Shown here one piece after another: positions 1-57,385 of a stretch of DNA of 64,000 nt. Under the pieces are notes generated by a model that saw nothing but the letters and a program-made list of their open reading frames with translations, ran no database searches and had not been told where the DNA came from. The translations under genes and the position numbers were made by a program. Source of the DNA: an uncultured Gemmatimonadales bacterium (GTDB taxonomy: Bacteria > Gemmatimonadota > Gemmatimonadetes > Gemmatimonadales > GWC2-71-9); the NCBI GenBank assembly GCA_963825815.1, contig CAWGVB010000030.1:10287-74286 (forward strand), in the 5' to 3' direction. Every line of letters begins with the position of its first letter. Within the stretch, counting starts at the first letter, position 1.

Positions 1-316
1 TCGTCCCACTTGACCTTGCCCTGGTCCACCAGCATCGCCACCGCCAGCGACGGTGAAGGCCTTGGAGGAAGACCCGATGGCGAACAGCGTGCGCTCGTCC
101 ACCCGGTCGCGGCTTGCCCAGCGTCCGCACGCCGTAGCCTTTGGCCAGGATCACCGAATCGTTCCGCACGATGGCGAGCGCCAGCCCGGGAATTTTCCAG
201 TCGGCCATGCTCTTGGTGACGTAGTCATCGAGGCCCTGCAGCGGCTTGGACTGGGCCGCGGCCGCGGTGGGCGCGACGAGTGCGAGGATGACAAGAAGAC
301 GGGAGAAGGTTCTCAT
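1..316 (-). pseudogene. Serine hydrolase, beta-lactamase/PBP-like fold (5' part only; gene continues past window start); two frame changes as sequenced
   Basis: Reverse-strand ATG at 316-314. Translation is MRTFSRLLVILALVAPTAAAAQSKPLQGLDDYVTKSMADWKIPGLALAIVRNDSVILAKGYGVR. After two 1-nt shifts it continues ERTLFAIGSSSKAFTV and LAVAMLVDQGKVKWDD. This gives a signal peptide plus an S-x-x-K motif (SSSK). Not listed in the ORF track. Confidence 0.7.
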
Positions 317-379
317 GGTCCGCTCCGGAACAGATCGGCGCTCTTGCGTGGGCGGCGAAGGAGGTTCATTGTTGAGGCC

Positions 380-392
380 AATGTATACAATT
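380..392. promoter_or_regulatory. Candidate GntR-type operator, core palindrome TGTATACA (382-389), in the divergent spacer between hydrolase (1-316, -) and racemase operon (+)
   Basis: AATGTATACAATT is seen directly. The same AT-rich 8-mer recurs at 11168-11175 and 13791-13798, each time at a promoter or start region of this island. It fits the generic GntR operator form GT-Nx-AC. Confidence 0.45.
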
Positions 393-1510
393 CTGAATCC
401 ACTGGCCAGAGATGGCAAGCCGCTGCGGCTGGAGCGCCTCACGCCTGCGCGAGATCCAGCTCCCGCTGAAGGAGCCGTTCCGGATCTCCTCCGGCACCCA
501 GACCAGCCGCCGCATCCTGCTGCTCGAGCTGGAGGACGCCGACGGCGCGACCGGCTGGAGCGAGTGCGTGGCGCCGGAGGAGCCCAACTACACCGCGAGA
601 CGATCGACACCGCCTGGCTCGCCCTCGAGCAGTGGGTGGCGCCGCGGGTGCTGGGCCGCGCGTTCGCCGGCCCGGCAGAGGTCTTCCCCGCCCTGCAGCA
701 CAACTTCCGCGGGACAACATGGCCAAGGCGGCGGTCGAGATGGGCATGTGGGCGCTCGGCGGCCGAGCAGCGGGGCGTCTCGCTCGCCCGCCTGCTCGGC
801 GGCACCCGGAGCCGATCGAGGTCGGGATCTCGCTCGGCATCCAGGCGTCGCCCGGCGGCGCTGGTCGAGAGGGCCCGGCGCGCGCTGGAGGAGGGCTACC
901 GCAAGGTGAAGATCAAGATCGAGCCGGGCGCCGACGTCGAGTACGTGCGCGCGGTGCGCGAGGCGCTGGGGCCCGAGGCGCCGCTCATGGCCGACGCCAA
1001 CAACGCCTACACCCTGGACGACATGCCGAACCGCTGCTCGAGCTCGACGAGCTCGGACCTGATGATGATCGAGCAGCCGCTCGCCTGGGACGACCTCGGC
1101 AGCACGCCGAGCTGCAGCGGCGGCTCCAGACGCCGATCTGCCTCGACGAGTCGATCACCTCGCTCGACCGCGCCCAGGAGATGATCGCGCTGGGCAGCGG
1201 CCGGATCATCAACATCAAGCCGGGCCGGGTCGGCGGGTTCGCGCCGTCGATCGCGATCCACGACTTCTGCGCCGCGCACGGGATCCCGGTCTGGTGCGGC
1301 GGCATGCTGGAGAGCGGCGTGGGCCGGGCGTACAACGTCGCGCTCGCCTCGCTCCCCAACTTCACCAAGCCGGGCGACATCTCGCCCAGCGCGCGCTACT
1401 GGGAGCGGGACATCGTGTCGCCCGAGTGGACGATGGACGAGGGCATGATGACTGTGCCGGCGGGAACGGGGATCGGAGTGGAGGTGGATCGGGAGCGGGT
1501 TGAGCGTTAA
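381..1510 (+). pseudogene. Enolase-superfamily N-succinyl/N-acylamino-acid racemase (o-succinylbenzoate synthase-like); about 8 frame changes as sequenced
   Basis: Pieces come from ORFs 246..1184, 412..909 and 632..1510. They read [50 protein letters not shown] / [20 protein letters not shown] / [13 protein letters not shown] / [42 protein letters not shown] / [13 protein letters not shown] / [39 protein letters not shown]...[37 protein letters not shown]. This is the typical MR/MLE fold (KxK, D-E-D metal ligands). The start is either 381 (ATG inside the palindrome) or 412. Confidence 0.8.
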
Positions 1511-1648
1511 TGGTGAGGGAGCTGACGCTGGAGCGGGGAATAGGGAGCGCGGGACTGCAGCGGCGGGGCAGATGGGCACCGAAGCGGCGGGCGAAGCGAC
1601 GTCAGCGGGGCAGTAACAGAGCGGGCAGCGGGACGGCGGGCAGTCGTG
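1511..1648. repeat. G-rich degenerate short-period repeat (GCGGGGCAG / GCGGGCAG units) filling the racemase-permease spacer
   Basis: Seen directly: ...ggggaatagggagcgcgggactgcagcggcggggcagatgggcaccgaagcggcgggcgaagcgacgtcagcggggcagtaacagagcgggcagcgggacggcgggcagtcg. Purine/G-rich on the + strand only. Confidence 0.45.
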
Positions 1649-3020
1649 ATGAGTGAGCAAAGGAGCTGCCACGGCTGCTGGGCTTTCGCCAGCTGATCGC
1701 GATCACCATCGGCACGGTGATCGGGTCCGGGATCTTCATCGTCCCCGGCGCGGTGATGCGGCAGACGGGCGGCTCGGTGGCGCTCTCGCTCCTGGTGTGG
1801 GTGGCCGGCGGGGTGCTCTCGCTCCTCGGCGCGCTCACCTACGCCGAGATGGGGGCGATGAAGCCCGAGGCGGGCGGACTCTACATCTATATCCGCGACG
1901 GGTTCGGTCCCTTCCCCGCCTTCCTCTTCGGCTGGACCATGTTCTTCATCACCGGCAGCGGCACCATCGCCACGCTCGCCGTGGCGTTCACCGCCTACCT
2001 GGGACAATTCGTGCCGTTGACTCCGCTCACCGGCCGGCTGGCCGCGGTGGCAATGCTGGCGGTGGTCATGGTGGTGAACGTGCGGGGCACCGCGGCAGAG
2101 CGCCGGATTCCAGGGCTGGGCCACCTGCTCAAGGTGGCCGGCATCGTGCTGCTGAGCGTCACTGTTTCTGCTGCCGCGGCCACGGGCTCGGCGAGATCGG
2201 AGCTCCCATCGGCGACGCCGGTACCGGGCGGATCGCTCCTGGCCGGCTTCGGGCTGGCGATGATCGCGACCCTCTGGGCCTACGAGGGCTGGCAGTTCGT
2301 CACCTACTCCGCCGGCGAAGTGAAGAATCCGCAGCGCACCTTTCCTCGCGCGATCATCGCTCGGCACCGCCGCGCTGGTGGCGATCTATCTGCTCGCCTG
2401 CATCGGCTACATCGCGGCGCTGGGTCCCGCCGGCGTCGCGGGCTCGGACCGGGTGGCCGCGGAGGCCGACCACCGCCCTGTTCGGACCGGCGGCGGGGAA
2501 GTTGATCGCGGTCATGATCCTGATCTCCATCGTGAGCGCGACCAATGGAACAGTGCTCACCCTGCCGCGCGCGTTCTTCGCCATGGCGCGGGACGGGATC
2601 TTCTTCCGCCGGCTGGCCGAGGTTCATCCCCGCTACGGCACGCCGGCGGTGGCGATCGTGGCCTGCTCCATCTGGTCGATGGTGCTGGCCGTGAGCGGCA
2701 CCTTCGAGCAGCTCTTCACCTACGTGATCTTCGTGGGCTGGATCTTCTACGGCGTGGGCGCGCTCAGCATCTTCCGCTATCGCCGCCTGGAGCCGAACAC
2801 GCCCAGACCCTTCCGGGTGCCGGGCTACCCGGTGACGCCGATCCTCTTCGTCGCCTCGGCCGCGGCCATCGTGCTGAACACCATCGTGTCGCAGCCGGGG
2901 CGGGCCGCGGTGGGCCTCGGGGTGCTGCTGCTGGGCTCGCCGGCGTATCTGATCTGGCGCCGGCGTGGGGTCACTCCCGGCGGCAAAGGCGAGTGGCGGA
3001 ACGGCCGGGGCACCCTATGA
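1649..3020 (+). pseudogene. APC-family amino-acid permease; about 3 frame changes
   Basis: ORFs 1717..2505, 2378..3817 (short part) and 1653..3020 (3' part). Sequence: IGTVIGSGIFIVPGAVMRQTGGSVALSLLVWVAGGVLSLLGALTYAEMGAMKPEAGGLYIYIRDGFG...LWAYEGWQFVTYSAGEVKNPQRTFPRAI...ISIVSATNGTVLTLPRAFFAMARDGIFFRRLAEVHPRYGTPAVAI...FRYRRLEPNTPRPFRVPGYPVTP. Stop at 3018-3020. Confidence 0.85.
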
Positions 3021-3817
3021 CCGGTGAGGGAATCGTGATTCGCCGGGTGGAGACTCAGGCCGAATACGAAGAGTGCGTCCGGATCCAGGACGAGACCTGG
3101 GGCGCCGGCTTCAGCGAGCGGGTTCCCTCCGCGATTCTCAAGGTGGCGCAATACCTCGGTGGCGTCACCGCGGCGGCTTTCGACAGCGATGGAGCTGACG
3201 CAGGAATCCTGGGATTCGTCTTCGGAATGACCGGCGTTCGCGACGGCGCAGCTGGTGCACTGGTCGGACATGCTCGCGGTGCGGCCCGAGGCGCGAGACC
3301 ACGGGATCGGCCGCCGGCTCAAGCTGTACCAGCGCTCGCTGGTGGCGGAGCTGGGAGTGACCCAGATTCTCTGGACCTTCGATCCCCTGGTCTCCCGGAA
3401 CGCGCATCTGAACCTCAACGCGTTGGGTGCCCGGGTCACCGATTACGTGCCGGACATGTACGGCGCCGACACCGGAAGCGCGTTGCACCAGGGGATCGGG
3501 ACCGACAGGTTCGTGGTGGCGTGGGAGGTCAGCGGGGAAGCGGGAGGCGGGGAGGCGGGGACGACAACACCAGGGAAGCGGGGAGGCGGGGAGGCGGGGA
3601 TGGAAGAGCGGCAGCGGGCAGCAGCGGGACGGAGGTTGTGGTGGAGATTCCGCACGATATACAGGAGCTGATCGTGGCAGACCCGGCGGCCGCCCGGAAG
3701 TGGCGGGAGTCGACCCGACCTGCCTTCCTCCGCCTGCTGGCCGACGGATACCGCGTGGCCGGCTTCGAGCGTTCTCCCGCCGGCGGATTTTACCGGCTGA
3801 CCCGAGACAGCGATTGA
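3017..3817 (+). pseudogene. GNAT-like N-acyltransferase (candidate amino-acid N-acyl/succinyl transferase); about 2-3 frame changes plus a G-rich insert
   Basis: ATG at 3017 overlaps the permease stop (ATGA). Sequence: MTGEGIVIRRVETQAEYEECVRIQDETWGAGFSERVPSAILKVAQYLGGVTAAAF...HWSDMLAVRPEARDHGIGRRLKLYQRSLVAELGVTQILWTFDPLVSRNAHLNLNALGARV...GTDRFVVAWEV...VVEIPHDIQELIVADPAAARKWRESTRPAFLRLLADGYRVAGF. The family assignment rests on general GNAT-like features only. Confidence 0.55.
3531..3640. repeat. G-rich 8-nt-periodic array containing a 28-nt direct duplication spaced 39 nt, inside the GNAT gene
   Basis: GGGGAAGCGGGAGGCGGGGAGGCGGGGA (3534-3561) and GGGAAGCGGGGAGGCGGGGAGGCGGGGA (3573-3600), followed by agagcggcagcgggcagcagcgggacgg. 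It encodes a low-complexity stretch, GEAGGGEAGTTTPGKRGGGEAGMEE. Confidence 0.6.
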
Positions 3818-4989
3818 GCCTGGCGACGAAGCTCGGCTTCAGCAACGAAGCGGCCGCCCGGCTGACCGCGCTCCGGCGCGACCTGCACCGCAATCCGGAG
3901 CTGTCCTGGAAAGAGGAAAGGACCGCGGCCCGGCTGGAGGCCGAGCTGAAATCGCTCGGAGCTACCGATATCCGGCGGGTGGTGGGAACCGGAGTCGTGG
4001 GACGGATCCGCGGCCGGAAGAAAGGCCGCACGGTGGCGATCCGGGGCGACATCGACGCGCTGCCGATCGAGGAGGCGACCGGCCTGGACTTCGCCTCCAG
4101 CAACAGCGGCATCATGCACGCCTGCGGGCACGACGTGCACGCGAGCTGGGCAGTCGGCGCGGGGTTGCTGCTCAGCAACTCTCCCGCCGAAGGCGACGTG
4201 CTATTGGTGCTACAGCCCGCGGAGGAGGTGGGTGAGGGCGCCGCCGCGATTCTGGAGACCGGCGCACTGGACGAGGCGAAGGTGATCGTCGGCGCCCACG
4301 TGGACCGGCGTTACGAGCTGGGCCAAGTGGTGGCGCAGGAGGGGCCGGTCAACGCTTCGACCGATAACTTCAAGATCGAGCTGATCGGAGCGGGAGCTCA
4401 CGCCGCCCGTCCCCACGAGTCGGCCGATCCAATCGTGGGTGCGGCCGCGCTGATCACCGCGCTCCAGACGCTGGTGTCGCGCCGGCTCGATCCGTCGATT
4501 CCCGCGCGTAGTCACCGTGGGAACGGTGCACGCCGGCACCGCGGACAACATCATTCCCGATCGCGCCGAGCTGAGTGGGACGATTCGAGCGGTGACCCGC
4601 GCCTCGCGCGAGCTCCTGATGGAGGAGCTCAAGCGAGTGAGCACCCACGTGGCCCAGGCTCACCGGCTGAAGGCCCAGGTTCTGTTCGATCAGGGAACGC
4701 CGCCGGTGGTGAACCCGGCCGAGCCGATTGGCTGGGCCCGAGAGGCGGTGAAGAGCGTCCTGGGCGAGAGCGCGCTGGTGCCGCTGGCTGGAACCAACAT
4801 GGGCGGCGAGGACTTCGCCTTCTACCTGGAGAAGATTCCGGGCTGCTTTCTCCGGATCGGCGCGCGGGAGCCGGGAGGTCCCTGGCTGCCGGCGCACTCA
4901 CCCGGGTTCATCGTGGCGGAGGAAAGCATCTTCGTCGGGCGCGGCGGTTCTGGCGGAGACCGCGCGGCGAGCAGCACGATTGTCACCCT
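3814..4989 (+). pseudogene. M20-family amidohydrolase (N-acyl-L-amino-acid amidohydrolase / hippuricase type); 2 frame changes
   Basis: TTG at 3814 overlaps the GNAT stop (TTGA). ORFs 3427..5073 and 4517..5092. Sequence: LRRDLHRNPELSWKEERTAARLEAELKSLG...VAIRGDIDALPIEEATGLDFASSNSGIMHACGHDVHASW...LQPAEEVGEGAAAILETGAL...VGAHV...GTVHAGTADNIIPDRAELSGTIR...MGGEDFAFYLEKIPGCFLRIGA. The 3' end is approximate because of a shift near 4950. Confidence 0.85.
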
Positions 4990-5025
4990 GAGCGCCAGCG
5001 GCCCCTTCACTTCGTTCAGGGTGAC
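4982..5025. repeat. REP-like palindromic element (GTCACCCTGAGCG...CGTTCAGGGTGAC)
   Basis: Perfect 10-bp stem, GTCACCCTGA (4982-4991) / TCAGGGTGAC (5016-5025). It lies between convergent genes. It belongs to the same family as the elements at 6649-6726, 18265-18359, 29491-29554 and 30889-30912. Confidence 0.6.
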
Positions 5026-6653
5026 ACCGCACAACCACCCCGCAGCACCCGCCCTGCCTTGGCGCCGGTGTAGCCGCTCTGGTCCAGGGTGACCTCTCCG
5101 TTTACCACCACGTAGTCGATACCCGCCGGCGCGGCTGTGGGCCGCTCCCAGGTGGCGTTGTCCTGGATCCGGTCGTAGTCGAACACGGTGATGTCGGCCC
5201 GCATGCCTTCCCGGATCACTCCCCGGTCGGCAAACCCCATCCGGGCGGCCGGCCAGGAGGTCATCTTCCTGACCGCCTCCTCCAGAGTGAGCAGATGCCG
5301 CTTGCGCACGTACTCGGCGATGATCCGGGGGAAGGTGCCGTAGGCCCGGGGGTGCGGCAGGCCCAGCGCGTCGACCTCGCCGAACTTCACGGCCGACGCC
5401 GCGTCGGTGCCGATGCTGGTCCACGGCCGGCGCAGCGCGAGCGCGATGTCGCCCTCGTCCATCATGAAGAAGAGCGCCATCGCCCGGTTGGGCAGAGCCT
5501 CGAGCACGATGTCCCAGGCCACGTCGGCGGGGTCCCGTCCCAGAGCAGTGGCGATGGCCGCGATGCTCTTCATCTGGTAGGCGGCGTACTTCTTGTTGAA
5601 CGGATTGGCCAGCACGACGTGGTCCCAGCCGCCCGACGCCTGCACCAGGTTGGACCAGCCCGGCTGGGATCCCGCCGCCACCTCGCGCTTGAGCCGCTCG
5701 CGCACCGCCGGGTCGCGCAGGCGGGCGTAGCCCTTCTCCTCTCCCTCGGCAAAGACCCAGTTGGGCACCGTGATGCTGAGGCCGGTCCCGCCGGCCGGAT
5801 AGGGATAAAGATCCGCGGCCACGTCGACGCCTCTGCCCCGGGCCGAATCGATCTCGGCGAGAGCCTGGGGCATGAGCCGGCCCCAGCCGGGCGCGAACGC
5901 CGCCTTCAGGTGGAAGATCTCGACCTTCACGCCTCCCTTCTCACCGATCTCCACCGCCTCACGGATTCCGGAGACGAGGTTTTCGCTCTCGTCCCGCATG
6001 TGGGTGGCGTAGAAGCCGCCGCAGGGCGACACGACCTTGGCCAGCTCGATCAGGTCGGCGGTGGACTGGTAGCTGTCGGGCGGATAGATGAGCGCGCTGC
6101 TGATGCCGAGGGCACCGGCCTGCATGGCGAGGGCTGACATCGGATTTCATTTTCGCCAGCTGCGCCGGCGTGGGGGTGCCGGCGCCGTCACCCATCACGT
6201 GGACCCGGGCCTGGGCCGCACTGTAATAGCTGCCGAAGTTGACGGCGATACCCTGCCGCTCCAGCCGGGAGAAGTAGATGCTGATGCTCTCCGCCGGCAC
6301 CGGCGTGCCGCCTTCCCCGCCGATGAGAGTAGTGACACCCATGCGCAGCTTGTTCTCCGCGGCGGGACTCTCGAGCAGGACTTCGCCCGAGTGGTCCATC
6401 ATGTCGATCCAGCCGGGTGAGACGTAGCGGCCGCCGGCGTCGATCTCCCGGCGGCCCTTCCCGGTCACCAGACCGAGCTTCGCGATTCTTCCCTTACTGA
6501 TGCCGACGTCGGCGCGCACCCAGGGATTGCCGGCGCCGTCGAGCACCCGCCCGTTCCGGATGACGAGGTCGTACTCCGTCCCGGACGGGGTGGGCTGAGG
6601 AGATGAGGTCGGACTCGCGCACGCCGCGGAGAGCGCGAGGAGAATGCTGTCAC
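5016..6653 (-). pseudogene. N-acyl-D-amino-acid deacylase (D-aminoacylase), amidohydrolase superfamily; about 2 frame changes
   Basis: ORFs 5016..6140 and 5959..6546. Sequence: YDLVIRNGRVLDGAGNPWVRADVGISKGRIAKLG...IDAGGRYVSPGWIDMMDHSG...GVTTLIGGEGG...YATHMRDESENLVSGIREAVEIGEKGGVKVEIFHLKA...SIGTDAAS...PHPRAYGTFPRIIAEYVRKRHLLTLEEAVRKMTSWPAARMGFADRGVIREGMRADITVFD. The N-terminus, ILLALSAACASPTSSPQ, is lipoprotein-like and abuts a REP element, so the exact start is uncertain. Confidence 0.85.
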
Positions 6654-6726
6654 CCTGAGCGCAAGCGAAGTCGGTATCTGAGAGCCTTGCAGCGAAGAGT
6701 ATGCCGCTCGCTGCGCTCAGCGTGAC
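6649..6726. repeat. REP-like palindromic element
   Basis: GTCACCCTGAGCGCAAGCGAAG (6649-6670) pairs with CTCGCTGCGCTCAGCGTGAC (6707-6726). It lies between the hydrolase stop (6739) and the D-aminoacylase start. Confidence 0.6.
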
Positions 6727-6738
6727 ACGGTCCGCTCA

Positions 6739-8735
6739 TCAGTAGTTGATGTCGAACGCGACGAGCTTGAACACCACCGCGATGTAGAGCAGCGTCACCG
6801 TGGCCAGCACGAGCAGTCCGCTCCAGAGCTGTGAGCTCCACGGCCGCTTGCCGCTCCGGGCCAGCCGGGCATTCCAGAGCGCCACGCCTGCGGCGCCCAG
6901 GAACACCACCAGGCCGAGCAGCTGGAGCAGCCAGAGCCAGGGATCGCTCTTCGAGGTGAGCGCCGAGACCTCCGTGCTCATCCGCTGGATCTGCCAGGTC
7001 CAGCCGGCCAGCAGGAGCAGCAGACCCAGGCCGCAGCAATGCGAACCCAACGGTAGGCTGACCGGGCCCGGCCTTGCAGCGGAAAGGTGGCGCCGATACC
7101 GCCGGCGAGCCAGCGCGGCCAGCGGCCAGGCGATCAGAGTCAGGACCAGCACGGCCAGGCTGAACTCGGCCAGCGGCAGCAGCCACGAAGGCGACTTCCA
7201 CCACCGGGTGGGCCGAAACACGATGAAGGGGGAGATCTCGTCCCCGCTCAACATCTCGACCCGTCCGTTCTCCACCTTGGCCCCCGCCACGTTCTTGCCG
7301 TCGACCTCCTGCCAGACGAAGGGCTTGATCTCGCGCCAATGCTTCGGCTCGCCGTTGAGCGCCGTGAGGTATGGCAGGGTGATCGTCGTATCGGGATTGA
7401 CGGTGACCTTGCTGGGGCTGATCAGATCGGTCAGGCCGAAGAAGTTGGAGACGGAATGGCGCGAGCTCTCGTACTGACCGGCCACCTGCTGCGCATGGGC
7501 GTAGGCGGTCGGCCCGGTCCAGCGGCGTGGCGGTATCGGGAGCCGGCAGATAGCGGTCGGCGAACTGCTCGAACACCGCGGTCCGGATGGGGCCCGCCGC
7601 GCCATCCTTACCGGGGCTGTTCATCGAGATGAAGATGCCGATGCCATCGTCGATGAAGAGGTGCAGATCGCTGTGGAACCAGAAGGTGTCGCCCCCGTGG
7701 GCGATGGCCCGGTGACCGTTGCGGTTGGTCTCGTAGAAGCCGAGCAGCATCCGGTTCACCGCCGGCATGAGCGTGAGCGCGGTCGTGTGCATCAGCCTGG
7801 CCGTCTCCGGGCGAAGGATGCTGGCCTGGCCGAAGCGGCCGTTCTGCAGGTGGGCGATCATGAATCGCGCCCATGTCGGCGCCGGACGCGGAGAGGGCTC
7901 CCGCCGGGGCGCCCACCACCATCTCGAAGGGCTTGGGCTCTCCGGAGGAGGCGCTCTCGTAGCCCTCTGACATGTCTTTGCGGAGTGACGCCGGCAGCGG
8001 CTGGCGGAAGGTCGCGTGCTCCATGCCGAGCGGCTGGAAGATGTGGTGCTCGATGTACTGCTCGAACGGCTCGCCCGACACCCGCTGGACGATGTACCCG
8101 GCCAGGGCCGTGGCGTAGTTGGAGTACGCGGGCACCGTTCCCGGCGGGTAGATCCGGGTCGGGGTCCAGGATTTCAGCCAGTCGCCATTCGGCTGCACCT
8201 TGGTGGTATCGTCGGAGAAGAGGTTGCGGCCCACCTCCTCGAATCCCGGCGTGTGGGTCATGACGTTGCGCAGGGTGATCGGCTTGCCGAAGGCCGCGGG
8301 AATCTTGAAGTCGAGGTAGGTGTTGACGTCCTCGTCCAGGTCGAGCTTGCCCTGCTCGACCAGCTGCATCACCGCGGTCCAGGTGAAGAGCTTGGAGACC
8401 GAGCCGGGCCGGAACAGCGTGCGGTCGGGATCGACCGGCTTCTTCCGTTTGAGGTCGGCGTAGCCATAGCCCTTCTTGAAGAGCACCTCGCCGTCCTTGA
8501 CCACCGCCACCACCGCGCCGGCGATATCGCCCCGCTGGAGCGCGTAGGGAAGGAAGCCGTCGAGCCAGGCCTGCACGTCGGCCCGGGTGAGCTGCGCCGC
8601 GCCCGCCGGAGGACCCTCCGGCCCGGCTCGCTCGATCGAAGGCGCGGGCGGCCTCTGCGCCGGGCGCTGGGCTGCCAGATCATTCCGGCCGAGAGTCAAC
8701 GCCGCGAGGAACAGTCCCACCAGGAATCGTGTCAT
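6739..8735 (-). pseudogene. Serine hydrolase, beta-lactamase/D-peptidase fold, with C-terminal multi-TM region; about 2-3 frame changes
   Basis: ATG at 8735 overlaps the ddpX stop (ATGA). ORFs 7608..9482 (lower part), 6650..7861 and 6739..7605. Sequence: MTRFLVGLFLAALTLG...GAVVAVVKDGEVLFKKGYGYADLKRKKPVDPDRTLFRPGSVSKLFTWTAVMQLVEQGKLDLDEDVNTYL...YSNYATALAGYIVQRVSGEPFEQYIEHHIFQPLGM...HGGDTFWFHSDLHLF. The tail holds about 4 hydrophobic helices and ends ...VVFKLVAFDINY. Confidence 0.85.
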
Positions 8736-9428
8736 GCGCTCACCTGTCGGTTTAGGGGTGATTCTGCTGGGCGTCCGGAACCAAGCTGCTCGAAGGTGAG
8801 GTTCTGGATCCGGTAGCGCCGCCAGTCCTGATAGTCGAAGTGCCACCACTCCGCCTCGTAGACGGTGAAGCCCTCCGCCTCCATCGCGTGGCGCAGCAGG
8901 TCGCGGTGCCAGCGCTGGAGCGACGTGCCGCCGGGGTAGAGCGGATAGGAGCGGTCGGACATCTCGTCGTAGCCGCCGGTCATCCGAATCGGCTTGCCGG
9001 TCTTCAGGTCGTAGAGCGTGAGGTCGACCGCGCAGCCGCGGTTGTGCCGCGAGCCCTCGGCGGGATCGGCGACGAACAGGTGCTTGTCCGCCGGCGTGGC
9101 GTCCCAGAACATCTTGGTCACGTACCACGGCCGATAGGAGTCGTGCACCAGCAGGCCGTAGCCCAGCGGCCGGAGCCGCCGGGCAGCGCGGACGACCGCC
9201 TCGGCCGCCGGCCGCTGCATGAAGGCGTGCGCCGAGGTGTAGAACGGCGTGCCCATGAAGTTGTTCGCCGTGGCGTAGCGGATGTCGTAGGCGATGCGTG
9301 GGGTCGAGAGTCCGTAGCTCGACCAGATCGGTGGGCCGGAAGTCTCCCGTCTCCTCGGGCGGGCTGGCCGCCAGCGCTTCGGTGCGGAGCTCGGCGACCG
9401 GGTCGACCGGCGTGATCCGGAAGCTCAC
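8732..9428 (-). CDS. ddpX: D-alanyl-D-alanine dipeptidase (VanX/DdpX, peptidase M15D); one frame change; may be fused to the upstream hydrolase
   Basis: TDLVELRTLDP / RIAYDIRYATANNFMGTPFYTSAHAFMQRPAAEAVVRAARRLRPLGYGLLVHDSYRPWYVTKMFWD...FVADPAEGSRHNRGCAVDLTLYDLKTGKPIRMTGGYDEMSDRSYP...FTVYEAEWWHFDY. This matches my recollection of E. coli DdpX (SxHxxGxAxD and EWWH motifs). GTG at 9428 is a possible start, but the frame is open further upstream. Confidence 0.8.
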
Positions 9429-9429
9429 C

Positions 9430-11176: not shown

Positions 11177-11177
11177 T
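11166..11177. promoter_or_regulatory. Candidate GntR-type operator, core TGTATACA (11168-11175), in the 34-bp divergent spacer
   Basis: AGTGTATACATT is seen directly. It overlaps the start codon of the minus-strand hydrolase and lies 36 nt upstream of the plus-strand hydrolase ATG (11211). Confidence 0.45.
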
Positions 11178-11210
11178 CTCGGATACACTTTACGCGGGCG
11201 GCCGCCGGAT

Positions 11211-12946
11211 ATGAACTGCAGATATGCCATCTTCACTCTCGTGCTGGTTGGGTTCGCCTCTGCCAGCGGTGTCCTCGAGGCCCAGAGCGCGGTGCCGGAC
11301 AGCGTGGCCCGCCGGATCGATGCGGTCTTCACCAAGTTCGGCCCGGATTCGCCCGGCTGTGCTCTGGGCGTGTACCGCGACGGCCGCATCGTCTACGACC
11401 GGGGCTACGGCAGCGCCGACCTCGAGCGGAAGGTGCCGCTCTCGCCGGCCTCGGTGCTCGACATCGGCTCGACCTCGAAGCAGTTCACCGCGATGAGCAT
11501 TCTGCTCCTGCAACAGGACGGCAAGCTCAGCCTGAACGACGACATCCGCACCTACCTCCCCGAGCTGCCGGACTACGGTACCCGGATCACCATCGGGGAC
11601 ATGCTGCACCACATCAGCGGCCTGAGGGACTACACCACGCTACTGGTGCTGGCCGGAAATCCCACGGAGAACTGGACCACCGACCAGGACGCCCTCGACA
11701 TCCTGGCTCGGCAGCGGGGGCTCAACTTCAAGCCCGGCAGCGAATGGCAGTACAGCAACTCGGGCTTCTTCCTGCTCTCGATCATCGTGAAGCGGGTGAG
11801 CGGGCAGTCGATCCGCCGCTTTGCCCAGAGCCGGATCTTCGGGCCGCTGGGCATGACCCACACCCACATCCACGACGACCATACGATGGTGGTTCCCAAC
11901 CGCGCCATCGGCTACATCCCGAGCGACAGCGGTGGACCCTTCCGGATCGAGATGTCGGACTGGGAGCAGGCCGGTGACGGCTCGGTGCTCACGACGGTGG
12001 AAGACCTGGTCAAGTGGGACGAGAACTTCTACACCGGTCGGGTGGGCGGTCCGAGCGTGCTGGCTGAAATGGTGAAACCGGGTAAGCTCGCAACCGGGAA
12101 GGTGCTGGACTACGCCTCCGGTCTCTTCCTGGGCGAGTACCGCGGACTCAAGATCGTGGAGCACGGCGGCGCCTGGGCCGGCTACCGGGCTCAGCTCATG
12201 CGGTTTCCCACCGAGCACGTCTCGGTGGCCTGCCTCTGCAATCTGGGGACCGCCGGACCCACCGAACTGGTGCAGCGGGTGGCGGACGTCTACCTGGCCG
12301 ACCGGCTCCAGCCTGCGCCGAAACAGGCGGCGACGGCCTCGGACACCGTAGCCGGCGCCGGCTCGCCCGTCCTGCCGCCCGAGCGGCTGCAGGACGCGGT
12401 GGGCACCTATCGCAATGCCAAGCTGGGCGAGGTGGGGCGCATCGCCCTGCTCGACGGGCAAGCTCACCCTCAAGTACGGCGGCGGGTCCTTCGCGTTGCA
12501 GCCGGTCAGCGCCACCGAGTTCCGTCTGGCCGATCTCGACGTCCGCCTCCGGTTCAACCCCGCGCAGGGCGGCCGTCCGCGCAGCATCCAGCTCATCGGC
12601 GCGGGACTCGACCAGCCGGTACTCGAGGCAGTGCCTCCGTTCCATCCTTCCGCCGAGGCTCTGCGCGAGTTTGCGGGCGAGTATTTCAGCCCCGAGCTGG
12701 CGAGTACCTACGGGGTGGCTCTGGAGAAACAGGCGCTGGTGCTCCATGCCCGCAATCTTCCGGCGACTCCGCTCGAGCCCACCATCCGGGACGAGTTCGA
12801 ATACGCCGAGCATGGGGCTGACCCTGCACTTCACCCGCACCGGTGGGAAGGTCAGCGGCTTCACGCTGGCCTCGGGCAGAACTCAGGGCATTCGCTTCGA
12901 GCGGCGGCAGGCTACCAGCTCCCTCTCTCGCCCGCCCGGCCGATGA
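11211..12946 (+). pseudogene. Serine hydrolase, beta-lactamase/D-peptidase fold; 2 frame changes
   Basis: ORFs 11106..12821, 12415..13092 and 12671..12946. Sequence: MNCRYAIFTLVLVGFASASGVLEAQS...GCALGVYRDGRIVYDRGYGSADLERKVPLSPASVLDIGSTSKQFTAMSILLLQQDGKLSLNDDIRTYLPEL...YSNSGFFLLSIIVKRVSGQSIRRFAQSRIFGPLGM...HGGAWAGYRAQLMRFP. S-x-x-K motif = STSK. Confidence 0.85.
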
Positions 12947-13660
12947 CCCGCTCGAGCCGCTCGGCGGCGTTGCGCCAGTTGGTCTGCACCGCGCGCTGGG
13001 CGACATCGGCGTTCCCCTTGTCGATGGCGGCGACGATCGCGTCGTGCTCGGCGGCGGAGGTCCTGAGATCGCTCACCAGCAGGCTGAGGTAGAGCCGCTC
13101 GTAGCGCTCCGCCTGGGGCTTGATCGTGGTGTGAAGGGCCAGCAGGCGGCGTCCGGCGCCGGCGTCGACGTAGGTGCGGTGAAAGGTGCTGTCGAGGTCG
13201 TGCAGCCGATTGTAGTCGGGCCGGCGCACGTCGGCCTCGCGGCGGAAGTCGGCGTTGATGGCGCGGAGCGAGCGGGCCAACGCCGCCGCTCGGTCCGAGG
13301 AAGCATCGCGGCCCACCGCGCCGGCCAATCCCTCGATCTCCGCCACGATATGGAACACCTCGCGGGCATCGTCGCTGGTGAGCGGGGCCACCGTCGGGCG
13401 GGCCAGCCGGCCCCCCGAGGGGTCCACGATGTAGCCCTCCTGCTGCAGCCGCTGCAGGGCTCCCCGCACCGGGGTGCGGCTCACGCCCGAGCCGGGCGGC
13501 GACATCGCTCTCGACGATCCGGCTACCGGGCGCCATCACGCCGTGGACGATGAGGTGCCGGAGCCGCTCGTACACCACCAGCGGACGCTCGCCCCGGACC
13601 ATCTCTGCCGCGCGGCGGGGCCGGGAGTTCCGGGGCGACGCAGGAGCTTTCACGGGCCAT
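12912..13660 (-). pseudogene. GntR-family transcriptional regulator (FadR/FCD-type C-terminal domain); about 2 frame changes
   Basis: ORFs 12912..13505, 12883..14271 (part) and 13523..13774. Sequence: RPLVVYERLRHLIVHGVMAPGSRIVESDVAARLG / VSRTPVRGALQRLQQEGYIV (winged HTH), then ...FHIVAEIEGLAGAVG...LHDLDSTFHRTYVDAGAGRRLLALHTTIKPQAERYERLYL...EHDAIVAAIDKGNADVAQRAVQTNW. The 3' end overlaps the convergent hydrolase by about 35 nt. Confidence 0.8.
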
Positions 13661-13788
13661 GCCGTCTCCGAGCTGGATGAGTTGGGCAACGATACTACTC
13701 CCGGGAGAGGATTGTCGAGCGGCGGCCGGCGGTTTCCGCGAGGACGTCTTGCGCAATCCCGTCGCGGCATCCATTGTTGTGCCGTGAA

Positions 13789-13800
13789 ACTGTATACAGT
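13789..13800. promoter_or_regulatory. Candidate GntR autoregulatory/SusC operator: perfect 12-nt palindrome ACTGTATACAGT
   Basis: Seen directly at 13789-13800, in the divergent spacer between gntR (-) and the SusC-like receptor (+). Confidence 0.5.
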
Positions 13801-13869
13801 GAAGCTATGCCGGCTCCATCCGTTCGCAAGACACTGTTCACCGCCCACGACCTCCCGCGGAATCGGACC

Positions 13870-16851
13870 ATGGCCAAGCATCCTGCCTCGCACGCCGTCT
13901 TTCTGCTCGGCATCCTCCTGCTCGGACCGACCGGTCTGGCCCGAGCCCAGGACTCGGTGCTGGCCGGCGTCGTCCTCAGCGCCACCAGCTCCCTGCCCCT
14001 GGAAGGCGCCCGGCTGACCATCGACGGCAGCCCGCTGATCCAGACCACCGACGCCAACGGCGATTTCGATTTGCCGGCGTCGCGGCACCCCAGGTGACGC
14101 TGCGGGTCGTCCGGGTCGGCTATCAGCCCGCGACCGTCGGTGGCGCCGGGCGGGCGACACCGACATCCAGATCCGGCTCCGGGAGGCGGCGGTCCAGCTG
14201 GACGAGATCGTGGTGACCGGCCAGGCGGAGGGGACCGAGCGCCGGGCGGTGGGCAACTCGATCGTGACCATCGATGCCCCGGCGGCGCTGGAGCTGTCCG
14301 GCGCGGAGCGACGTCACCCGGCTGCATCAACGGGCGAGCTCCCGGCGTCACCGTCGTACCGAACTCGGGTCGAATCGGGCGCCGGCCCCAGCCATCACCG
14401 TGCGCGGCCTCGGGTCGCTCTCGCTCAACACCCAGCCGCTGGTCTACATCGACGGCGTGCGGGTCAACAACGACGTGAGCAGCGGCCCGCAGTCGCCGCC
14501 GGCGGCCTGGTGGTCTCCCGGCTCAACGACATCGCCCCGGAAGACATCGAGAGCATGGAGATCATCAAGGGCCCCGCCGCCGCGACGCTCTACGGGACCG
14601 AGGCCTCCAACGGCGTCATCCAGATCATCACCAAGAAGGGCCGGGCCGGCAGCCAGTCCCCAGATCAGCTTCACCATCCGGCAGGGCACCAACTGGTTCC
14701 AGAACCCCGAGGGCCGGATCCCGACGAACTTCGGCCTCGATCCGGTGACCGGCGCCGTCGTGTCCCAGAACCTGGTGCAGCAGGAGAGCGACCGGGGCAC
14801 GCCGATCTGGAAGAACGGCTACAGCGGGAGCTACAGCCTCTCGGCCACGCGGCGGCTCCAACGCGGTGCAGTACTATCTCTCGGGCAACTACGATGACGA
14901 CCACGGCATCGACCCGACCAACAAGGCCCGCCGGTTTGCCGGGCACGCCAATCTTTCGTTTCCGATCAGCCAGAAGCTCGACGTCAGCACCAGCTTCAAC
15001 TACGTAAAGGCGAAGTACCACCTGGGCGTCGACTACGGCGACGGCGTCCTGTTCAATACCCTGTACGGCCTGCCGATCCTGCCAGGTCACGCCCACTCGC
15101 GGGTTCCTGCAGACCCCGCCCGAAGCGTTCTACTCCGGCGTGTTCGACAACACCCAGGATCTCGCCCGCTTCACCGGCAGCGTCACCGCGAATCATCGTC
15201 CGTCGCAGCTGGTTCAGTCACCGGCTGACCCTGGGATTCGACCAGACCGGCGAGGACAACCAGGCGCTGACCCAGTTCATGCCTCCGGACGTGGCGCAGT
15301 TCTACGATCCGATCATCGGCCCGCGGGCCAGATCACGCTCAACCGCCAGGACATCTCGTTCTACACCGCGGATTACACCGCCACCGGCCGCTTCAACCTG
15401 TCCTCCAAGATCAGCTCCGCGACCTCGGTCGGCGCCCAGTACTACCAGCGGCGGGTCGACTCGATCTCGGCGTGACAGGGACAGCAGTTCCCTGCCCCGG
15501 GGTTCGTGACCGGCAACTCCACCGCGACCATTGCTCTCGGCAGCCAGGAGTTCGTCACCAACAAGACGATCGGCCTCTTTGCCCAGCAGCAGTTCGGGCT
15601 CAGTGACCGGGCTCTTCCTCACCGGCGCGGTCCGGGTCGACAACAACAGCGCCTTCGGCGACAACTTCGATTTCGCCAGCTATCCCAAGGTGAGCGGCAC
15701 CTGGGTGGTGAGCGAGGAGGCGTTCTGGGGGCTCGGACTTCGTCAACGCGCTCAAGCTGCGGGCGGCGTACGGCGCCTCGGGCGAGCAGCCCCAGACCTT
15801 CGCCGCCCTCCGGACCTACCAGCCGAGCACCGGGCCGAACGACGAGCCGACCGTGACGCCGCAGTTCGTCGGCAATCCCGACCTCAAGCCGGAGCGGGGA
15901 GAGGAGGTCGAGCTGGGCTTCGAGGCCGGTCTCTTCAACCGCGTCGGCATCGACTTCACCGTGTACTCCAAGCAGACCAAGGACGCGATCCTGCTGCGGG
16001 GCACCCCACCGTCCGGCGGATTTCCCGGAGAGCAGTTCGTCAACATCGGCCAGGTGAGCAACAAGGGCATCGAGCTGCAGGTGAACGCCCAGGCGATCAC
16101 CAAGCCGAATTTCAGCTGGGACCTGGGGTTCAACGTGGCGACCGCCTCCAACTAGATCGTGGATCTGGGCGGAATTCCCAGCATCAGCACGTTCCCGCCC
16201 CAGAGCAGCGTGGAAGGCTTTCCCATCGCCTCGTACTTCATCAAGAAGGTGGTGAGCGCCACGGCGGATCCCGACGGGACGCTGACCAGCGCGCTCTGCG
16301 ACGGCGGGCCGGGGCAGGCTCCGGTCGACTGCTCGGCGGCGCCGCTGGTGTTCGCGGGCACGCCGATCCCCAAGGTCGCCGGCGCCTTCACCACCACGCT
16401 GACCCTGTTCCGCAACCTCCGGCTCTATGGCCTGGTGGACTTCAAGCAGGGGCACAAGCGCTTCAATACCGACAAGTGGATCCGGTGCGACGTCTTTGCC
16501 AACTGCGAGGAGGCGGTGACGCCGGCGGGCCGCGATCCCCTGCTGCTGGCCGACATGGCACTGGGCGCCGATCTGCAGACGATCAACTCGTTCATCGAGG
16601 ACGCCGGTTTCTTCAAGCTGCGGGAGATCTCGGCCAGCTACACCCTGCCGGATCGTTGGGCCGCAGCGATCGGGGCCCAGCGCGCGGTCGTCACCGCCAC
16701 CGGACGTAACCTGCACACCTGGACCAGCTATACCGGGCTCGACCCGGACCGGCAGAGCCCCCAGGGACAGGCGGCCCCGCTCGACTTCTTTGATCAGGCG
16801 GTGACGCCACCGCTGGCCCAGTTCCTGATGACCATCAGCCTCAACTTCTAG
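13870..16851 (+). pseudogene. SusC/RagA-type TonB-dependent outer-membrane receptor; about 10 frame changes plus two in-frame stops
   Basis: Fragments come from 13774..14097, 14210..15007, 14274..14897, 14866..15228, 15140..15475, 15506..15856, 15853..16155 and 16159..16851. Features in order: MAKHPASHAVFLLGILLLGPTGLARAQDSVLAGVV (signal + CarboxypepD_reg-like region), [24 protein letters not shown] (plug), [74 protein letters not shown], and C-terminal ...LMTISLNF. In-frame TGA at 15473-15475 and TAG at 16153-16155. An alternative start is ATG 13807. Confidence 0.85.
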
Positions 16852-16876
16852 CGCGCGGCGAACGGAGAAGACGACC

Positions 16877-18209
16877 ATGAGACAGAAATCGTCAGCGTGG
16901 CTGGACTGGTTCCTGGGTGTGGCCTGTGCCGGCATGCTCTGCCTGATTCTCGCCGCCTGTCACGACATCACGTCGCTGGAGCAGGAGTCGCCCAGCCGGG
17001 TCAAGGCCAGCGATCTGGAGAAACCGGAGAACGCAACGCTGCTGGTAAAAAGCGCGGTGGGCGACTTCGAGTGCGCCCTGAACGACTACATCGTGGCCGC
17101 GGGCGCGGTGAGCGACGAGCTGGCCAACGCCAATCTGGGGAACATCCTCTGGGACTTCGACCGGCGCACCATCGTTCCGACCCTCACCAACTACTCGACC
17201 GATACCTGCGACGACGGCAATCCCACCGTCTACACCGTGCTGTCCATCGCGCGCTACGACGCCGACAAGGCGCTCCAGCTGCTCGACGGCTGGACCGACG
17301 AGCAGGTGCCGGACCGGACCGCGCTGATCAGCGTCGCCGCCACCTATGCCGGGTACAGCCTGGTGCTCCTGGGCGAAGGCATGTGCTCGGCGGCGCTCGA
17401 TGTCGGCCCGGAGCTGACGCCCGGCACAGATCCTGACCGAGGCGGAGGCGCGATTCACCCGGGCGATCGACGCGGCAACGGCAGCGCTCACCACGGCGCA
17501 ACAGCGGATGACAGTCTCAGCCTCAACTCGGGCCTGAACCTGGCCCTGGTCGGCCGAGCCCGAGCGCGCTTGGATCTCGGCAACAAGCCGGGCGCGGGAG
17601 CCGACGCCGCGCTGGTTCCGGCCGGATTCCTGGTAACGGCGACCCGATCCAGCACCAAGACCCAGCGAGAGAACCTGATCTTCACCTCCATGTATCGGGA
17701 TCTCACCTTTACGGTGGACGTTCCCTTCCGGGATCTCACCTTCGGTGGCGTGCCCGATCCCCGGGTGACGGTAACCGATTTGGGCACTACCGGCGCCGAC
17801 AATGCCACCGAGATCTTTGCTCCGGCCAAGTACACCAGCATCGACGCGCCGATCGTGGTCGGCAAATGGGAAGAGGCCCAGCTGATCCTGGCGGAGGCAG
17901 ACCTGGCGGCGGGTGACGTGGGTGGCGCAGTCAGCATCATCAACACGCTGCACACCAATGCCGGACTTCCGGCCTACGGCGGAGGAACTCCGGAGGAAGT
18001 GCTGGCCCAAATCATCGACGAGCGGAGCCGGGAGCTGTTTCTCGAGGGCCAGCGCCTGGGCGACATCATCCGGTACGGGGTGCCGCTCTATCCGGCCCCG
18101 GGTACGCCCTTCGCAGTGGGTGCGGGAACGCTCGGGCGAGTACGGGACGCAGGTGTGCTTCCCCCTTCCGACAGTGGAGCGGAACAACAACCCGAATATC
18201 CCGGATTGA
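16877..18209 (+). pseudogene. SusD/RagB-family outer-membrane lipoprotein; about 3 frame changes (two compensating)
   Basis: ORFs 16877..18358 and 17913..18209. Sequence: MRQKSSAWLDWFLGVACAGMLCLILAACHD (lipobox), ...LLVKSAVGDFECALNDYIVAAGAVSDELAN...YAGYSLVLLGEGMCSAA...WEEAQLILAEADLAAG...IIDERSRELFLEGQRLGDIIRYG...VCFPLPTVERNNNPNIPD (typical SusD C-terminus). A locally shifted stretch near 17420-17500 reads AQILTEAEARFTRAIDAATAAL in another frame. Confidence 0.8.
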
Positions 18210-24451: not shown

Positions 24452-24560
24452 ACCTTTTAGGCTCTCCGGGCAGGAGCCCGGAGTCAAGCTTCCGGTCGGT
24501 CAACTAGAGCGATCGCCTCGCTGGCGCGTTAGGGTTCGCAGCACCAGATTCTGAATCGCC

Positions 24561-25430: not shown

Positions 25431-25501
25431 GGCTAGGACAATTTAAGCTTCCTTTATCCACCCCCTACGCCCACATTCCGTCGTCCCTAACCCCGTCCAT
25501 C

Positions 25502-51721: not shown

Positions 51722-51725
51722 TCCG

Positions 51726-54988: not shown

Positions 54989-55081
54989 GCGATCGGCTCC
55001 GAATCAACTGGGAGATTCATTGACCGGGAAAATAGGGAGAGAGCCAGAGGTCAACCAGACGCTGGAGCCAGCGCTCTAGCC

Positions 55082-57375: not shown

Positions 57376-57385
57376 CTCACCGACC

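Follow-up and report, generated by a model that had tools for sequence, protein, structure and literature searches.

The gene ddpX reportedly lies in a starvation-induced operon together with a dipeptide transporter, and Lessard and Walsh are said to have proposed in 1999 that it salvages D-Ala-D-Ala as a nutrient. RagAB of Porphyromonas gingivalis is an oligopeptide importer of the SusC/SusD (SusCD) type. In Pyrococcus abyssi, Pab87 adjoins a D-aminoacylase and a dipeptide transporter, and the authors of that work proposed the scavenging of environmental D-peptides and muropeptide debris. For Geobacillus kaustophilus, a pathway from D- to L-amino acids has been published that consists of a GNAT-family protein, an N-succinyl/N-acylamino-acid racemase (NSAR) and an M20 amidohydrolase. 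Here we analyzed a stretch of 64 kb (66–70% GC, hereafter the window) from contig CAWGVB010000030.1 of an uncultured Gemmatimonadales bacterium, which carries at positions 1–18209 an island of peptidase, amidohydrolase, racemase and SusCD genes. The argument is built on computed domain identities, export signals, a gene fusion, synteny from two anchors, and the position and conservation of a palindrome. We consider it rather probable that the island is a single regulon, controlled by a GntR/FCD regulator, for the uptake and catabolism of peptides that contain D-amino acids.

Plain lists of open reading frames (ORFs) did not recover the genes of the first-pass annotation, an earlier reading of the same DNA, and were replaced by a frame-aware reading. 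Coding frames were traced with a phase profile of GC content at third codon positions and with a six-frame Viterbi path, for which codon usage was trained on the window; mapping of intact orthologues from related loci onto the window served as a second route to the genes. Window proteins are stitched conceptual translations or intact orthologues of related loci. The Viterbi path contains 59 same-strand frame switches across the 64 kb, about one per kb and throughout the window. None of the island genes is an intact ORF in the window, and the earlier coordinates hold only if frameshifts are read through. For the region 8000–12000 we compared short-read contigs of four soil and rhizosphere metagenomes, accepting pieces of at least 90% identity. 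The contigs of relatives differ from the window by 1-nt indels at 8772, 9297, 9475–9589 (six places), 9704 and 9727, and further at 10159 (three runs agree) and 11078 (two runs); these places match frame switches of the Viterbi path. Because the relatives show 1-nt indels there, the frameshifts are most likely indel errors of the assembly, which was probably built from error-prone long reads. Pseudogenization was rejected as their cause, since the indels are missing from independent short-read contigs and errors of this kind extend over the whole 64 kb. Any claim at the level of ORFs on this window requires frameshift-aware reading. Two sets of loci, 160 in all, were used for comparison: 80 genome loci retrieved with the DdpX domain and 80 metagenome loci retrieved with an alignment of the SusD clade. 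The closest matches of the DdpX domain are metagenome-assembled genomes of Gemmatimonadales with 87–94% identity.

Pfam and NCBIfam searches recovered all domains named in the first-pass annotation at about the places it had assigned to them. The genes and predicted sites of the island are as follows.

1–316, minus strand: bla0, exported S12 serine hydrolase of which the window edge leaves the N-terminal part (PF00144, 23.5 bits, a fragment and for that reason below cutoff; GSSSK from a three-frame read)
380–391, no strand: predicted operator site 1 (AATGTATACAAT; core 382–389), in the divergent bla0/NSAR-operon promoter region
421–1504, plus strand: NSAR, MenC-like enolase superfamily, window copy frameshifted (TIGR01928, 272 bits, cutoff 200.65)
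1660–2963, plus strand: APC-family amino-acid permease (PF13520, 6.7e-49)
3017–3805, plus strand: GNAT-like acyltransferase, candidate D-amino-acid N-succinyltransferase (PF13508, 21.6 bits, cutoff 27; no NCBIfam match)
3812–4989, plus strand: M20 amidohydrolase of the aminoacylase family, candidate N-succinyl-L-amino-acid desuccinylase, 3' end uncertain owing to a frameshift (TIGR01891, 333 bits, cutoff 153.75; PF01546, PF07687)
5016–6653, minus strand: exported D-aminoacylase-like amidohydrolase, Amidohydro_3 (Pfam, PDB matches, signal peptide on the L013 orthologue)
6739–8735, minus strand: blaA, S12 hydrolase with signal peptide and about four C-terminal hydrophobic helices (PF00144, PDB matches, stitched sequence)
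8732–11176, minus strand: S12-M15 fusion gene for an exported bifunctional protein in which two beta modules separate an S12 D-peptidase-like domain from a C-terminal M15 dipeptidase domain of the VanX/DdpX type (Pfam, ORFs of relatives, short-read contigs)
11166–11177, no strand: predicted operator site 2 (AGTGTATACATT; core 11168–11175), overlapping the fusion start, 34 nt upstream of blaC
11211–12946, plus strand: blaC, exported S12 hydrolase whose C-terminal domain is DUF3471-like (PF00144; NF009622, 167 bits, cutoff 443, far ahead of the next family; PDB match 1ei5)
12915–13661, minus strand: GntR-family regulator with FCD ligand-binding domain (PF00392 and PF07729)
13789–13800, no strand: predicted operator site 3, palindromic over its full 12 bp (ACTGTATACAGT; core 13791–13798), 70 nt upstream of the SusC ATG
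13870–16851, plus strand: SusC/RagA-family TonB-dependent outer-membrane transporter, copy heavily frameshifted (Plug and TonB_dep_Rec; L006 orthologue)
16877–18209, plus strand: SusD/RagB-family surface lipoprotein of a short (~430–450 aa) Gemmatimonadota clade (PF07980, 41.4 and 46.2 bits, cutoff 23.1; lipobox LILAAC)

The left side of the island is truncated by the window edge at position 1. Its right end lies after SusD, where the next gene encodes a protein of the PEP-mutase/isocitrate-lyase family (18496–19250) that is not conserved among the relatives; envelope genes on the opposite strand come next. In locus L006, the closest relative with the gene order of the window, SusD is followed instead by an S9 prolyl-oligopeptidase/DPP-IV-type peptidase (384–2522, minus strand), and the right-hand border of the island therefore differs among strains.

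The central enzyme is the S12-M15 fusion. Pfam places PF00144 at about 9300–11176 and PF01427 (Peptidase_M15) at 8735–9317, both on the minus strand, and in the window neither a stop nor a start codon separates the two parts. The reading frame runs through ...PTDLVELRTLDP, is shifted by one extra base at about 9297 and continues with IAYDIRYATANNF; a short-read contig is without that base. The window copy of the gene is interrupted by 1-nt indels near 9297, 9475–9589, 9704–9727, 10159 and 11078. Relatives have a single ORF of 800–860 aa; in L006 and L013, one of about 850 codons covers both S12 and DdpX, and an S12 match lies upstream of DdpX within the same open frame in 65 of the 80 genome loci, most of the full-length ones having an open frame of about 790–920 codons. 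These loci belong to Gemmatimonadota, Acidobacteriota, Planctomycetota, Ignavibacteria, Neomarinimicrobiota, Bacteroidota and Eisenbacteria. Two genes, an S12 hydrolase blaB and a separate ddpX, were thus rejected, given the single ORF in relatives and a window frame broken only by the extra base at about 9297. The DdpX domain that had been annotated is present, but as part of the fusion and not as a gene of its own at 8732–9428. Likewise, of the translational coupling proposed for the hydrolase-ddpX-hydrolase genes, the ATGA at 8735–8732 is real, the ATG of blaA overlapping the stop of the upstream fusion gene, but the hydrolase at 9430–11176 and ddpX are one gene and not a coupled pair. The four S-x-x-K hydrolases of beta-lactamase fold were all borne out by PF00144 at the four places, including the edge fragment with GSSSK; the island holds four S12 genes, one of which bears the DdpX domain.

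The fusion protein carries a signal peptide, and between its PF00144 and PF01427 domains lie about 260 residues that Pfam does not match. In an AlphaFold2 model (mean pLDDT 82, pTM 0.78) this middle region takes the form of two all-beta modules, and the Foldseek matches that reach into these modules are Pab87, IS11, the D-aminopeptidase of O. anthropi (576 columns), the DL-peptidase Lip3 (630 columns) and SurE. In this model, the fusion shows the S12-plus-beta-barrel architecture of enzymes acting on peptides with D-residues. The M15 domain scores 121 bits against a cutoff of 27, and its catalytic and zinc residues, read by eye, are kept: Arg (SYRP), H-x6-D (SRHNRGCAVD) and E-x-x-H (EWWH). The fusion family comprises at least 4,557 database proteins at E ≤ 1e-30, and both domains occur in all 120 among the matches listed; the automatic annotation of JGI names it "CubicO group peptidase / D-alanyl-D-alanine dipeptidase". 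Larger fusions exist as well. Triple fusions of S12, M15 and a D-aminoacylase-type Amidohydro_3 domain of about 1,320–1,380 aa are found in P0028, P0047, P0059 and P0077 (L007, 10001–13980), and others of about 1,280–1,380 aa join a DUF3471-type S12 domain to S12 and M15 (P0111, P0113, P0114 and P0116). Because they are fused in single polypeptides, S12, M15 and the D-acylase-like enzyme are placed on one pathway (Rosetta-stone evidence). About a dozen loci encode short DdpX ORFs of about 340–400 aa, in which about 160–220 residues precede M15 and S12 is missing (L019, L022, L024, L032, L038, L040, L046, L051, L054, L058 and L071 among them). In L019 and L022 the stretch upstream of M15 matches the C-terminal part of blaB, and in the short forms it may be a beta module.

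The affinities of the S12 enzymes were judged by score ranking (phmmer against all PDB chains, NCBIfam) and by fold search, as a proxy for a tree. For the S12 domain of the fusion the best PDB match is Pab87 (2qmi, 4.6e-45), followed by IS11, Lip3, ClbP, alkaline D-peptidase and R61; for blaC it is the O. anthropi D-aminopeptidase (1ei5, 9.7e-33), followed by Pab87, Flp and R61; and for blaA it is again Pab87 (8.8e-30), followed by IS11, Flp and alkaline D-peptidase. Family VIII esterases and class C (AmpC) enzymes score lower (about 1e-17 to 1e-21). The motifs S-x-x-K, Y-S-N and H-G-G are found in the S12 genes wherever sequence is available, and motif III is H-G-G, not K-T-G, in all three complete genes. 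In their motifs and nearest characterized relatives, these proteins agree with the D-stereospecific S12 peptidases (D-aminopeptidase, Pab87, alkaline D-peptidase and R61). A signal peptide (MRTFSRLLVILALVAPTAAAAQ) is also read in the fragment bla0, which is similar to S12 genes of the DUF3471 type in L013 and 54–63% identical to the S12 paralogues there. The blaA product is predicted to be membrane-anchored with its catalytic domain in the periplasm. Pab87 cleaves D-Ala-p-nitroanilide and the terminal D-Ala of a muropeptide pentapeptide, Lip3 (9sn1) cleaves D-L bonds in lipopeptides, and the hydrolysis of gramicidin and other non-ribosomal peptides by D-stereospecific S12 peptidases is documented. 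The island enzymes thus appear closest to D-stereospecific peptidases, which makes D-specificity itself plausible, and the clustering with esterases or class C beta-lactamases that the first-pass annotation had considered is not seen: D-stereospecific S12 peptidases score best and the class C cutoffs are missed.

The same data bear on the reading of the locus as a beta-lactam or glycopeptide resistance island, composed of class C-like beta-lactamases and a VanX-like dipeptidase, as the Pfam matches to the beta-lactamase fold and the VanX family might indicate. The class C equivalog is far missed (NF033085 at ≤100 bits versus 415), as are all other class C cutoffs of NCBIfam, and motif III is HGG rather than KTG; VanH, VanA or a ligase is not present, and the VanX-like domain is exported and therefore unable to deplete the cytoplasmic pool of D-Ala-D-Ala. 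We regard resistance as hardly conceivable and return to the catabolism of D-peptides.

Two further sets of genes relate to D-amino acids. For the exported D-aminoacylase-like protein, the intact L013 orthologue has its best PDB matches in the D-aminoacylase of A. faecalis (1m7j and 1rjp, ~1e-62), followed by an N-acyl-D-Glu deacylase (3gip, 1e-59). The metal ligands of the A. faecalis enzyme are His67, His69, Cys96, His220, His250 and Asp366; the island protein aligns with His220, His250 and Asp366. The YPY motif, described as a substrate-binding hallmark of the D-aminoacylase family, occurs in the window copy (LYPYPAGG) and reads YVY in the L013 orthologue. Judged from these residues, the protein is a divergent subfamily.

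NSAR matches N-acylamino acid racemases in the PDB (1sja, 2zc8 and 1r0m, E 1e-78 to 1e-80), and its catalytic and metal motifs can be read by eye in the stitched sequence as KVKIK (KxK), MADAN (D), IEQP (E), LDES (D) and IKPG (K). The activities of o-succinylbenzoate synthase and NSAR are not separable by sequence; men genes do not occur nearby. The APC permease is predicted to be the inner-membrane step in the uptake of released amino acids, and GNAT and NSAR are without a signal peptide. The order GNAT-NSAR(-M20) is conserved in L013, L058, L118, L126 and L136. Of the annotated module of racemase, permease, GNAT and M20, the NSAR, APC and M20 proteins were clearly recovered and the GNAT protein weakly; the conversion of released D-amino acids to their L-forms, as had been hypothesized, has its precedent in the published GNAT, NSAR and M20 pathway.

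The GntR regulator and the SusCD pair, said to close the island, were found with their domains in place. The L006 orthologue of SusC, 75% identical, reaches 447 bits for TIGR04056 (cutoff 368), and the window copy is colinear with it through its frameshifts; SusD follows after about 25 nt. The two proteins fall into the SusC/RagA and SusD/RagB families. Orthology with RagAB was rejected, as RagA matches at 5e-37, weaker than two glycan SusCs (4e-53 and 3e-41), and RagB gives no match. In the Pfam and NCBIfam searches, glycoside hydrolase, polysaccharide lyase and carbohydrate esterase families were found neither in the island nor among the recurrent neighbors of the SusD clade, and the island is not a polysaccharide utilization locus (PUL) in the strict sense. 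The context suggests that the SusCD pair itself carries peptides.

The regulation of the island is indicated by a palindrome. Its core TGTATACA occurs three times in the 64 kb, where 0.03 would be expected, and none of 100 shuffles reached three; all three sites are confined to the promoter regions of the island. The GT-N-AC palindrome is of a type used by GntR regulators of the FadR/FCD subfamily. Sites identical to site 3 are found in L006 and L084. Site 2 takes in the opening three codons of the fusion on the minus strand (ATG-TAT-ACA, M-Y-T) in the window and in L006 (7996–8010), and a repressor bound there would cover the translation start of the fusion. GntR orthologues adjoin SusC, S12 or GNAT genes in 22 related loci. 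In these, the 24 kb of promoter zones belonging to island genes contain 12 of 12 exact sites, and the remaining 243 kb contain none (Fisher p = 3e-13); when one mismatch is permitted, the enrichment in promoter zones is 12-fold. Over all 160 loci the total is 14 sites versus about 10 expected from composition, so that the enrichment is one of position only. Winged helix-turn-helix and FCD domains together with a palindrome common to the target promoters correspond to a regulon of the GntR/FadR subfamily. We infer that the palindrome is the operator of the GntR/FCD protein, which is predicted to be the local repressor. The SusCD pair does not appear to belong to a neighboring, unrelated regulon, since one palindrome occurs in the promoters of SusC, S12/fusion and the NSAR operon and is kept in orthologous loci.

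Synteny was examined from both anchors. Starting from DdpX, SusC and/or SusD homologues adjoin the fusion in ten Gemmatimonadota loci and in at least three arrangements: that of the window in L006, a co-directional one including SusC-SusD-S12-...-fusion (SusC-SusD-...-fusion in L008, L013, L014, L074 and L075), and a convergent one in L003, L009 and L011. The NSAR/GNAT/APC/M20 module adjoins the DdpX gene in Acidobacteriota (L018, L024, L037–L039, L064 and L069), in Ignavibacteria (L058) and in Gemmatimonadota (L008, L013 and L017). Starting from SusD, 32 of the 80 metagenome loci have at least 4 kb of flank, and 23 of these contain homologues of island enzymes (16 loci have S12, 11 the D-acylase-like gene and 13 GntR). 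Island enzymes have a density of 2.5–2.9 per 10 kb within 4 kb of SusCD versus 0.6 per 10 kb beyond 6 kb, a decrease of about four-fold, and the remaining 45 kb of the window contain a single island paralogue, a second APC permease. The neighborhood is thus conserved from the DdpX as well as from the SusD anchor, and S12, M15 and D-aminoacylase are tied together by domain fusions. All S12 proteins, the fusion and the D-acylase orthologue carry signal peptides, and SusD has a lipobox. Four independent lines, namely DdpX-anchored synteny, SusD-anchored synteny, the shared palindrome and compartment logic, indicate that the island is one functional unit.

These observations also bear on the view that the enzymes serve the periplasmic remodeling or recycling of the cell's own peptidoglycan, as DD-peptidases of the AmpH/PBP4B type with a dipeptidase, while SusCD is a mere neighbor. 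AmpH and PBP4B are indeed among the NCBIfam matches and all enzymes are periplasmic; the AmpH cutoff, however, is missed (92 versus 266), the predicted operator is common to SusCD, and the linkage to SusCD recurs in differing gene orders. Control by GntR/FCD and a catabolic D-to-L module are, moreover, typical of nutrient catabolism and not of housekeeping wall synthesis. A role in the cell's own wall is very improbable in our judgment.

The other neighbors of the SusD clade are DPP-IV (6), M23 (6), Tricorn/S41 (4), S15 (3), M28 (3), M19 (2) and M20 (2), together with DAO-type oxidoreductases (2); the families recurring near this clade include none of the glycoside hydrolases. DPP-IV, S15, M28 and Tricorn are ordinary L-peptidases. 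They would fit a locus for general foraging on L-peptides, in which SusCD imports ordinary oligopeptides as RagAB does and the S12 proteins are broad hydrolases or esterases whose D-labels are over-read. This would also be in line with the missed equivalog cutoffs, all of them, and with IS11, a top structural match that was deposited as a thermophilic esterase. IS11 is promiscuous. An L-peptide pathway, however, needs no module for D-to-L conversion, and three independent D-specific families (the DdpX-type M15, the D-aminoacylase-like protein, and NSAR with GNAT and M20) are fused or adjacent and share the predicted operator with SusCD. We therefore consider L-peptide foraging quite unlikely and prefer a regulon for D-residue peptides.

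The scheme that we propose for this regulon assigns substrates and the order of steps from sequence. SusC/SusD would import oligopeptides with D-residues across the outer membrane, and the four exported S12 peptidases would trim bonds beside D-residues in the periplasm. The M15 domain of the fusion would hydrolyse dipeptides of the D-Ala-D-Ala type, and the exported D-aminoacylase-like amidohydrolase may release C-terminal or N-acylated D-amino acids. A peptide that ends in a D-residue is formally an N-acyl-D-amino acid, and relatives of the D-acylase-like enzyme reportedly hydrolyse L-Xaa-D-Xaa, a finding attributed to Cummings et al. in 2009. Free amino acids would then be moved into the cytoplasm by the APC permease, where GNAT, NSAR and M20 would turn D- into L-amino acids by succinylation, racemization and desuccinylation. 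GntR/FCD would bind nTGTATACAn operators in the three promoter regions and presumably repress until a pathway intermediate binds.

As natural substrate we favor stem-peptide debris of peptidoglycan, because a D-Ala-D-Ala-dipeptidase domain is conserved, Pab87 acts on a muropeptide, and M23 peptidases lie near the SusD clade. The same machinery could instead act on non-ribosomal peptides or lipopeptides with D-residues, such as antibiotics and surfactants, which the S12 enzymes would detoxify like D-stereospecific resistance peptidases or DL-peptidases of the BogQ, TriF or Lip3 type and whose pieces would be consumed. Lip3, with its 630 aligned columns, is among the best fold matches, SurE is a further relative, S12 peptidases hydrolysing gramicidin and other non-ribosomal peptides exist, and the NSAR pathway is described for D-amino acids generally. 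Yet M15, both conserved and fused, is a member of the D-Ala-D-Ala dipeptidase family and this dipeptide is a signature of the cell wall, M23 peptidases recur near the SusD clade, active TonB-dependent import of a toxin would be an odd strategy of resistance, and the island contains neither non-ribosomal peptide synthetase nor efflux genes. Such peptides appear to us an unlikely, if sensible, alternative to stem peptides.

Several observations weigh against the regulon as proposed. Every S12 gene lies below the D-aminopeptidase equivalog cutoff (≤167 versus 443), and of the two best fold matches one, IS11, has been described as an esterase. The scores of the DdpX domain stay under both NCBIfam equivalog cutoffs (NF007557 and NF033115; 138.6 bits versus 176 and 99 versus 320), and it is exported and fused, unlike VanX and DdpX. 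The earlier assignment as D-aminoacylase stands as far as the best PDB matches go, but three canonical metal ligands, His67, His69 and Cys96, are missing: M-x-(Q/H) stands in place of H-x-H, and Gly in place of Cys96. GNAT was called at a score under its threshold. By sequence, SusCD is no orthologue of RagAB; of the Gemmatimonadota fusion loci whose flanks are long, about half lack a SusCD pair nearby, and 8 of the 32 SusD-anchored loci are without an island homologue. Site 2 overlaps the first codons of the fusion, and part of its conservation could therefore be coding. Finally, muramoyl-L-alanine amidase, NagZ or genes for the processing of N-acetylmuramic acid are not among the recurrent neighbors, which suggests that free peptides rather than glycan-linked muropeptides are handled; if peptidoglycan is the source, only its peptide part would be processed here.

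Bacterial necromass is a major pool of organic nitrogen in soil, its D-amino acids resist ordinary peptidases, and their uptake and recycling are known for only a few model pathways. The locus provides a complete parts list of transporter, periplasmic D-peptidases, permease, D-to-L converter, regulator and operator in an abundant and poorly cultured soil phylum, and would widen the substrate range proposed for SusCD systems beyond glycans and L-peptides. More tentatively, we speculate that the large exported S12-M15 and S12-M15-D-aminoacylase family might form the core of a widespread pathway of soil bacteria that feeds on the D-peptides of dead cell walls and is supplied in Gemmatimonadota by a clade of SusCD transporters dedicated to it. 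If true, SusCD systems specific for D-peptides would have their first example, and the recycling of peptidoglycan-derived nitrogen in soil would have a defined molecular route. The island enzymes could also serve as D-stereospecific biocatalysts.

The remainder of the window carries genes of other kinds. The second APC-family permease (60352–61620, minus strand) is 33% identical to the L013 orthologue of the island permease and adjoins an amidinotransferase/DDAH-like fragment (59501–60216, read by eye). A very large frameshifted gene at about 36700–45554 (plus strand) encodes GH94 supersandwich and GH94 catalytic domains with a glucoamylase-like domain, a layout that looks like cyclic beta-1,2-glucan synthase or proteins of the cellobionic-acid-phosphorylase type; it is preceded by a gene of metallo-beta-lactamase fold (35734–36633). 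A cell-envelope glycan cluster (46484–59266) contains several GT2 glycosyltransferases, an ABC-2-type exporter pair (by eye) and an ArnT-like membrane protein on the opposite strand, as well as a gene of the flavin amine-oxidase family (55097–56410) and a UbiA prenyltransferase (56572–57354), followed by FAD-oxidase-like and SDR-like segments. A Ser/Thr protein kinase (25490–27873), followed by apparent TolB-like beta-propeller repeats, has a candidate PP2C-like phosphatase beside it (24555–25427), repeats and phosphatase both being read by eye, and a second Ser/Thr kinase (30954–32750, minus strand) has HAMP and Pkinase domains in Pfam.

In the open-access literature we found no description of a SusCD locus wired to D-peptidases or of an operator of the S12-M15 fusion, no paper characterizing the fusion family, and nothing relevant that joins SusC/SusD with DdpX, D-aminopeptidases, peptidoglycan or D-amino acids, or with peptides in Gemmatimonadota. 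Each element has its precedent, namely RagAB for peptide import by SusCD, the Pab87 neighborhood for D-peptide scavenging, DdpX for the salvage of D-Ala-D-Ala, and the NSAR pathway.

With RagAB the island shares a SusC/RagA-family barrel with a SusD/RagB lid, a locus without carbohydrate-active enzymes, and a substrate class that here, too, would be peptides rather than glycans; the first-pass annotation, which called this class unusual, somewhat overstated the case, since RagAB is already a known SusCD-type peptide importer. The island pair differs in belonging to Gemmatimonadota and not Bacteroidota, in being tied to D-specific enzymes and a predicted GntR operator, and in a SusC as distant from RagA as from glycan SusCs and a SusD without a RagB match. 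PULs of Bacteroidota likewise combine a SusC/SusD pair with exported degradative enzymes and a local regulator; in the island, peptidases and amidohydrolases take the place of carbohydrate-active enzymes, and the regulator is of the GntR/FCD type instead of a hybrid two-component system, SusR or an extracytoplasmic function (ECF) sigma/anti-sigma pair. DdpX and VanX belong to the same family PF01427 and have the same catalytic and zinc residues as the island domain; however, they are stand-alone cytoplasmic proteins of about 190–200 aa, whereas the island domain forms the C-terminal end of an exported protein about 810 aa long. Pab87 is the closest solved relative of the fusion S12 domain, combines S12 with a beta-barrel (lipocalin-like) module and has a D-aminoacylase and a peptide transporter beside it. 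In contrast to the island enzymes, which are exported, one of them fused to an M15 dipeptidase, and which would be supplied by SusCD and an APC permease, it is a cytoplasmic, self-compartmentalizing octamer of an archaeon with an ABC importer. Candidates for the three families of the Geobacillus kaustophilus pathway adjoin one another in the island as well, although the operon has an inserted APC permease and the GNAT assignment is weak; and here the module would be part of a larger regulon that also provides for outer-membrane import and for D-peptidases in the periplasm.

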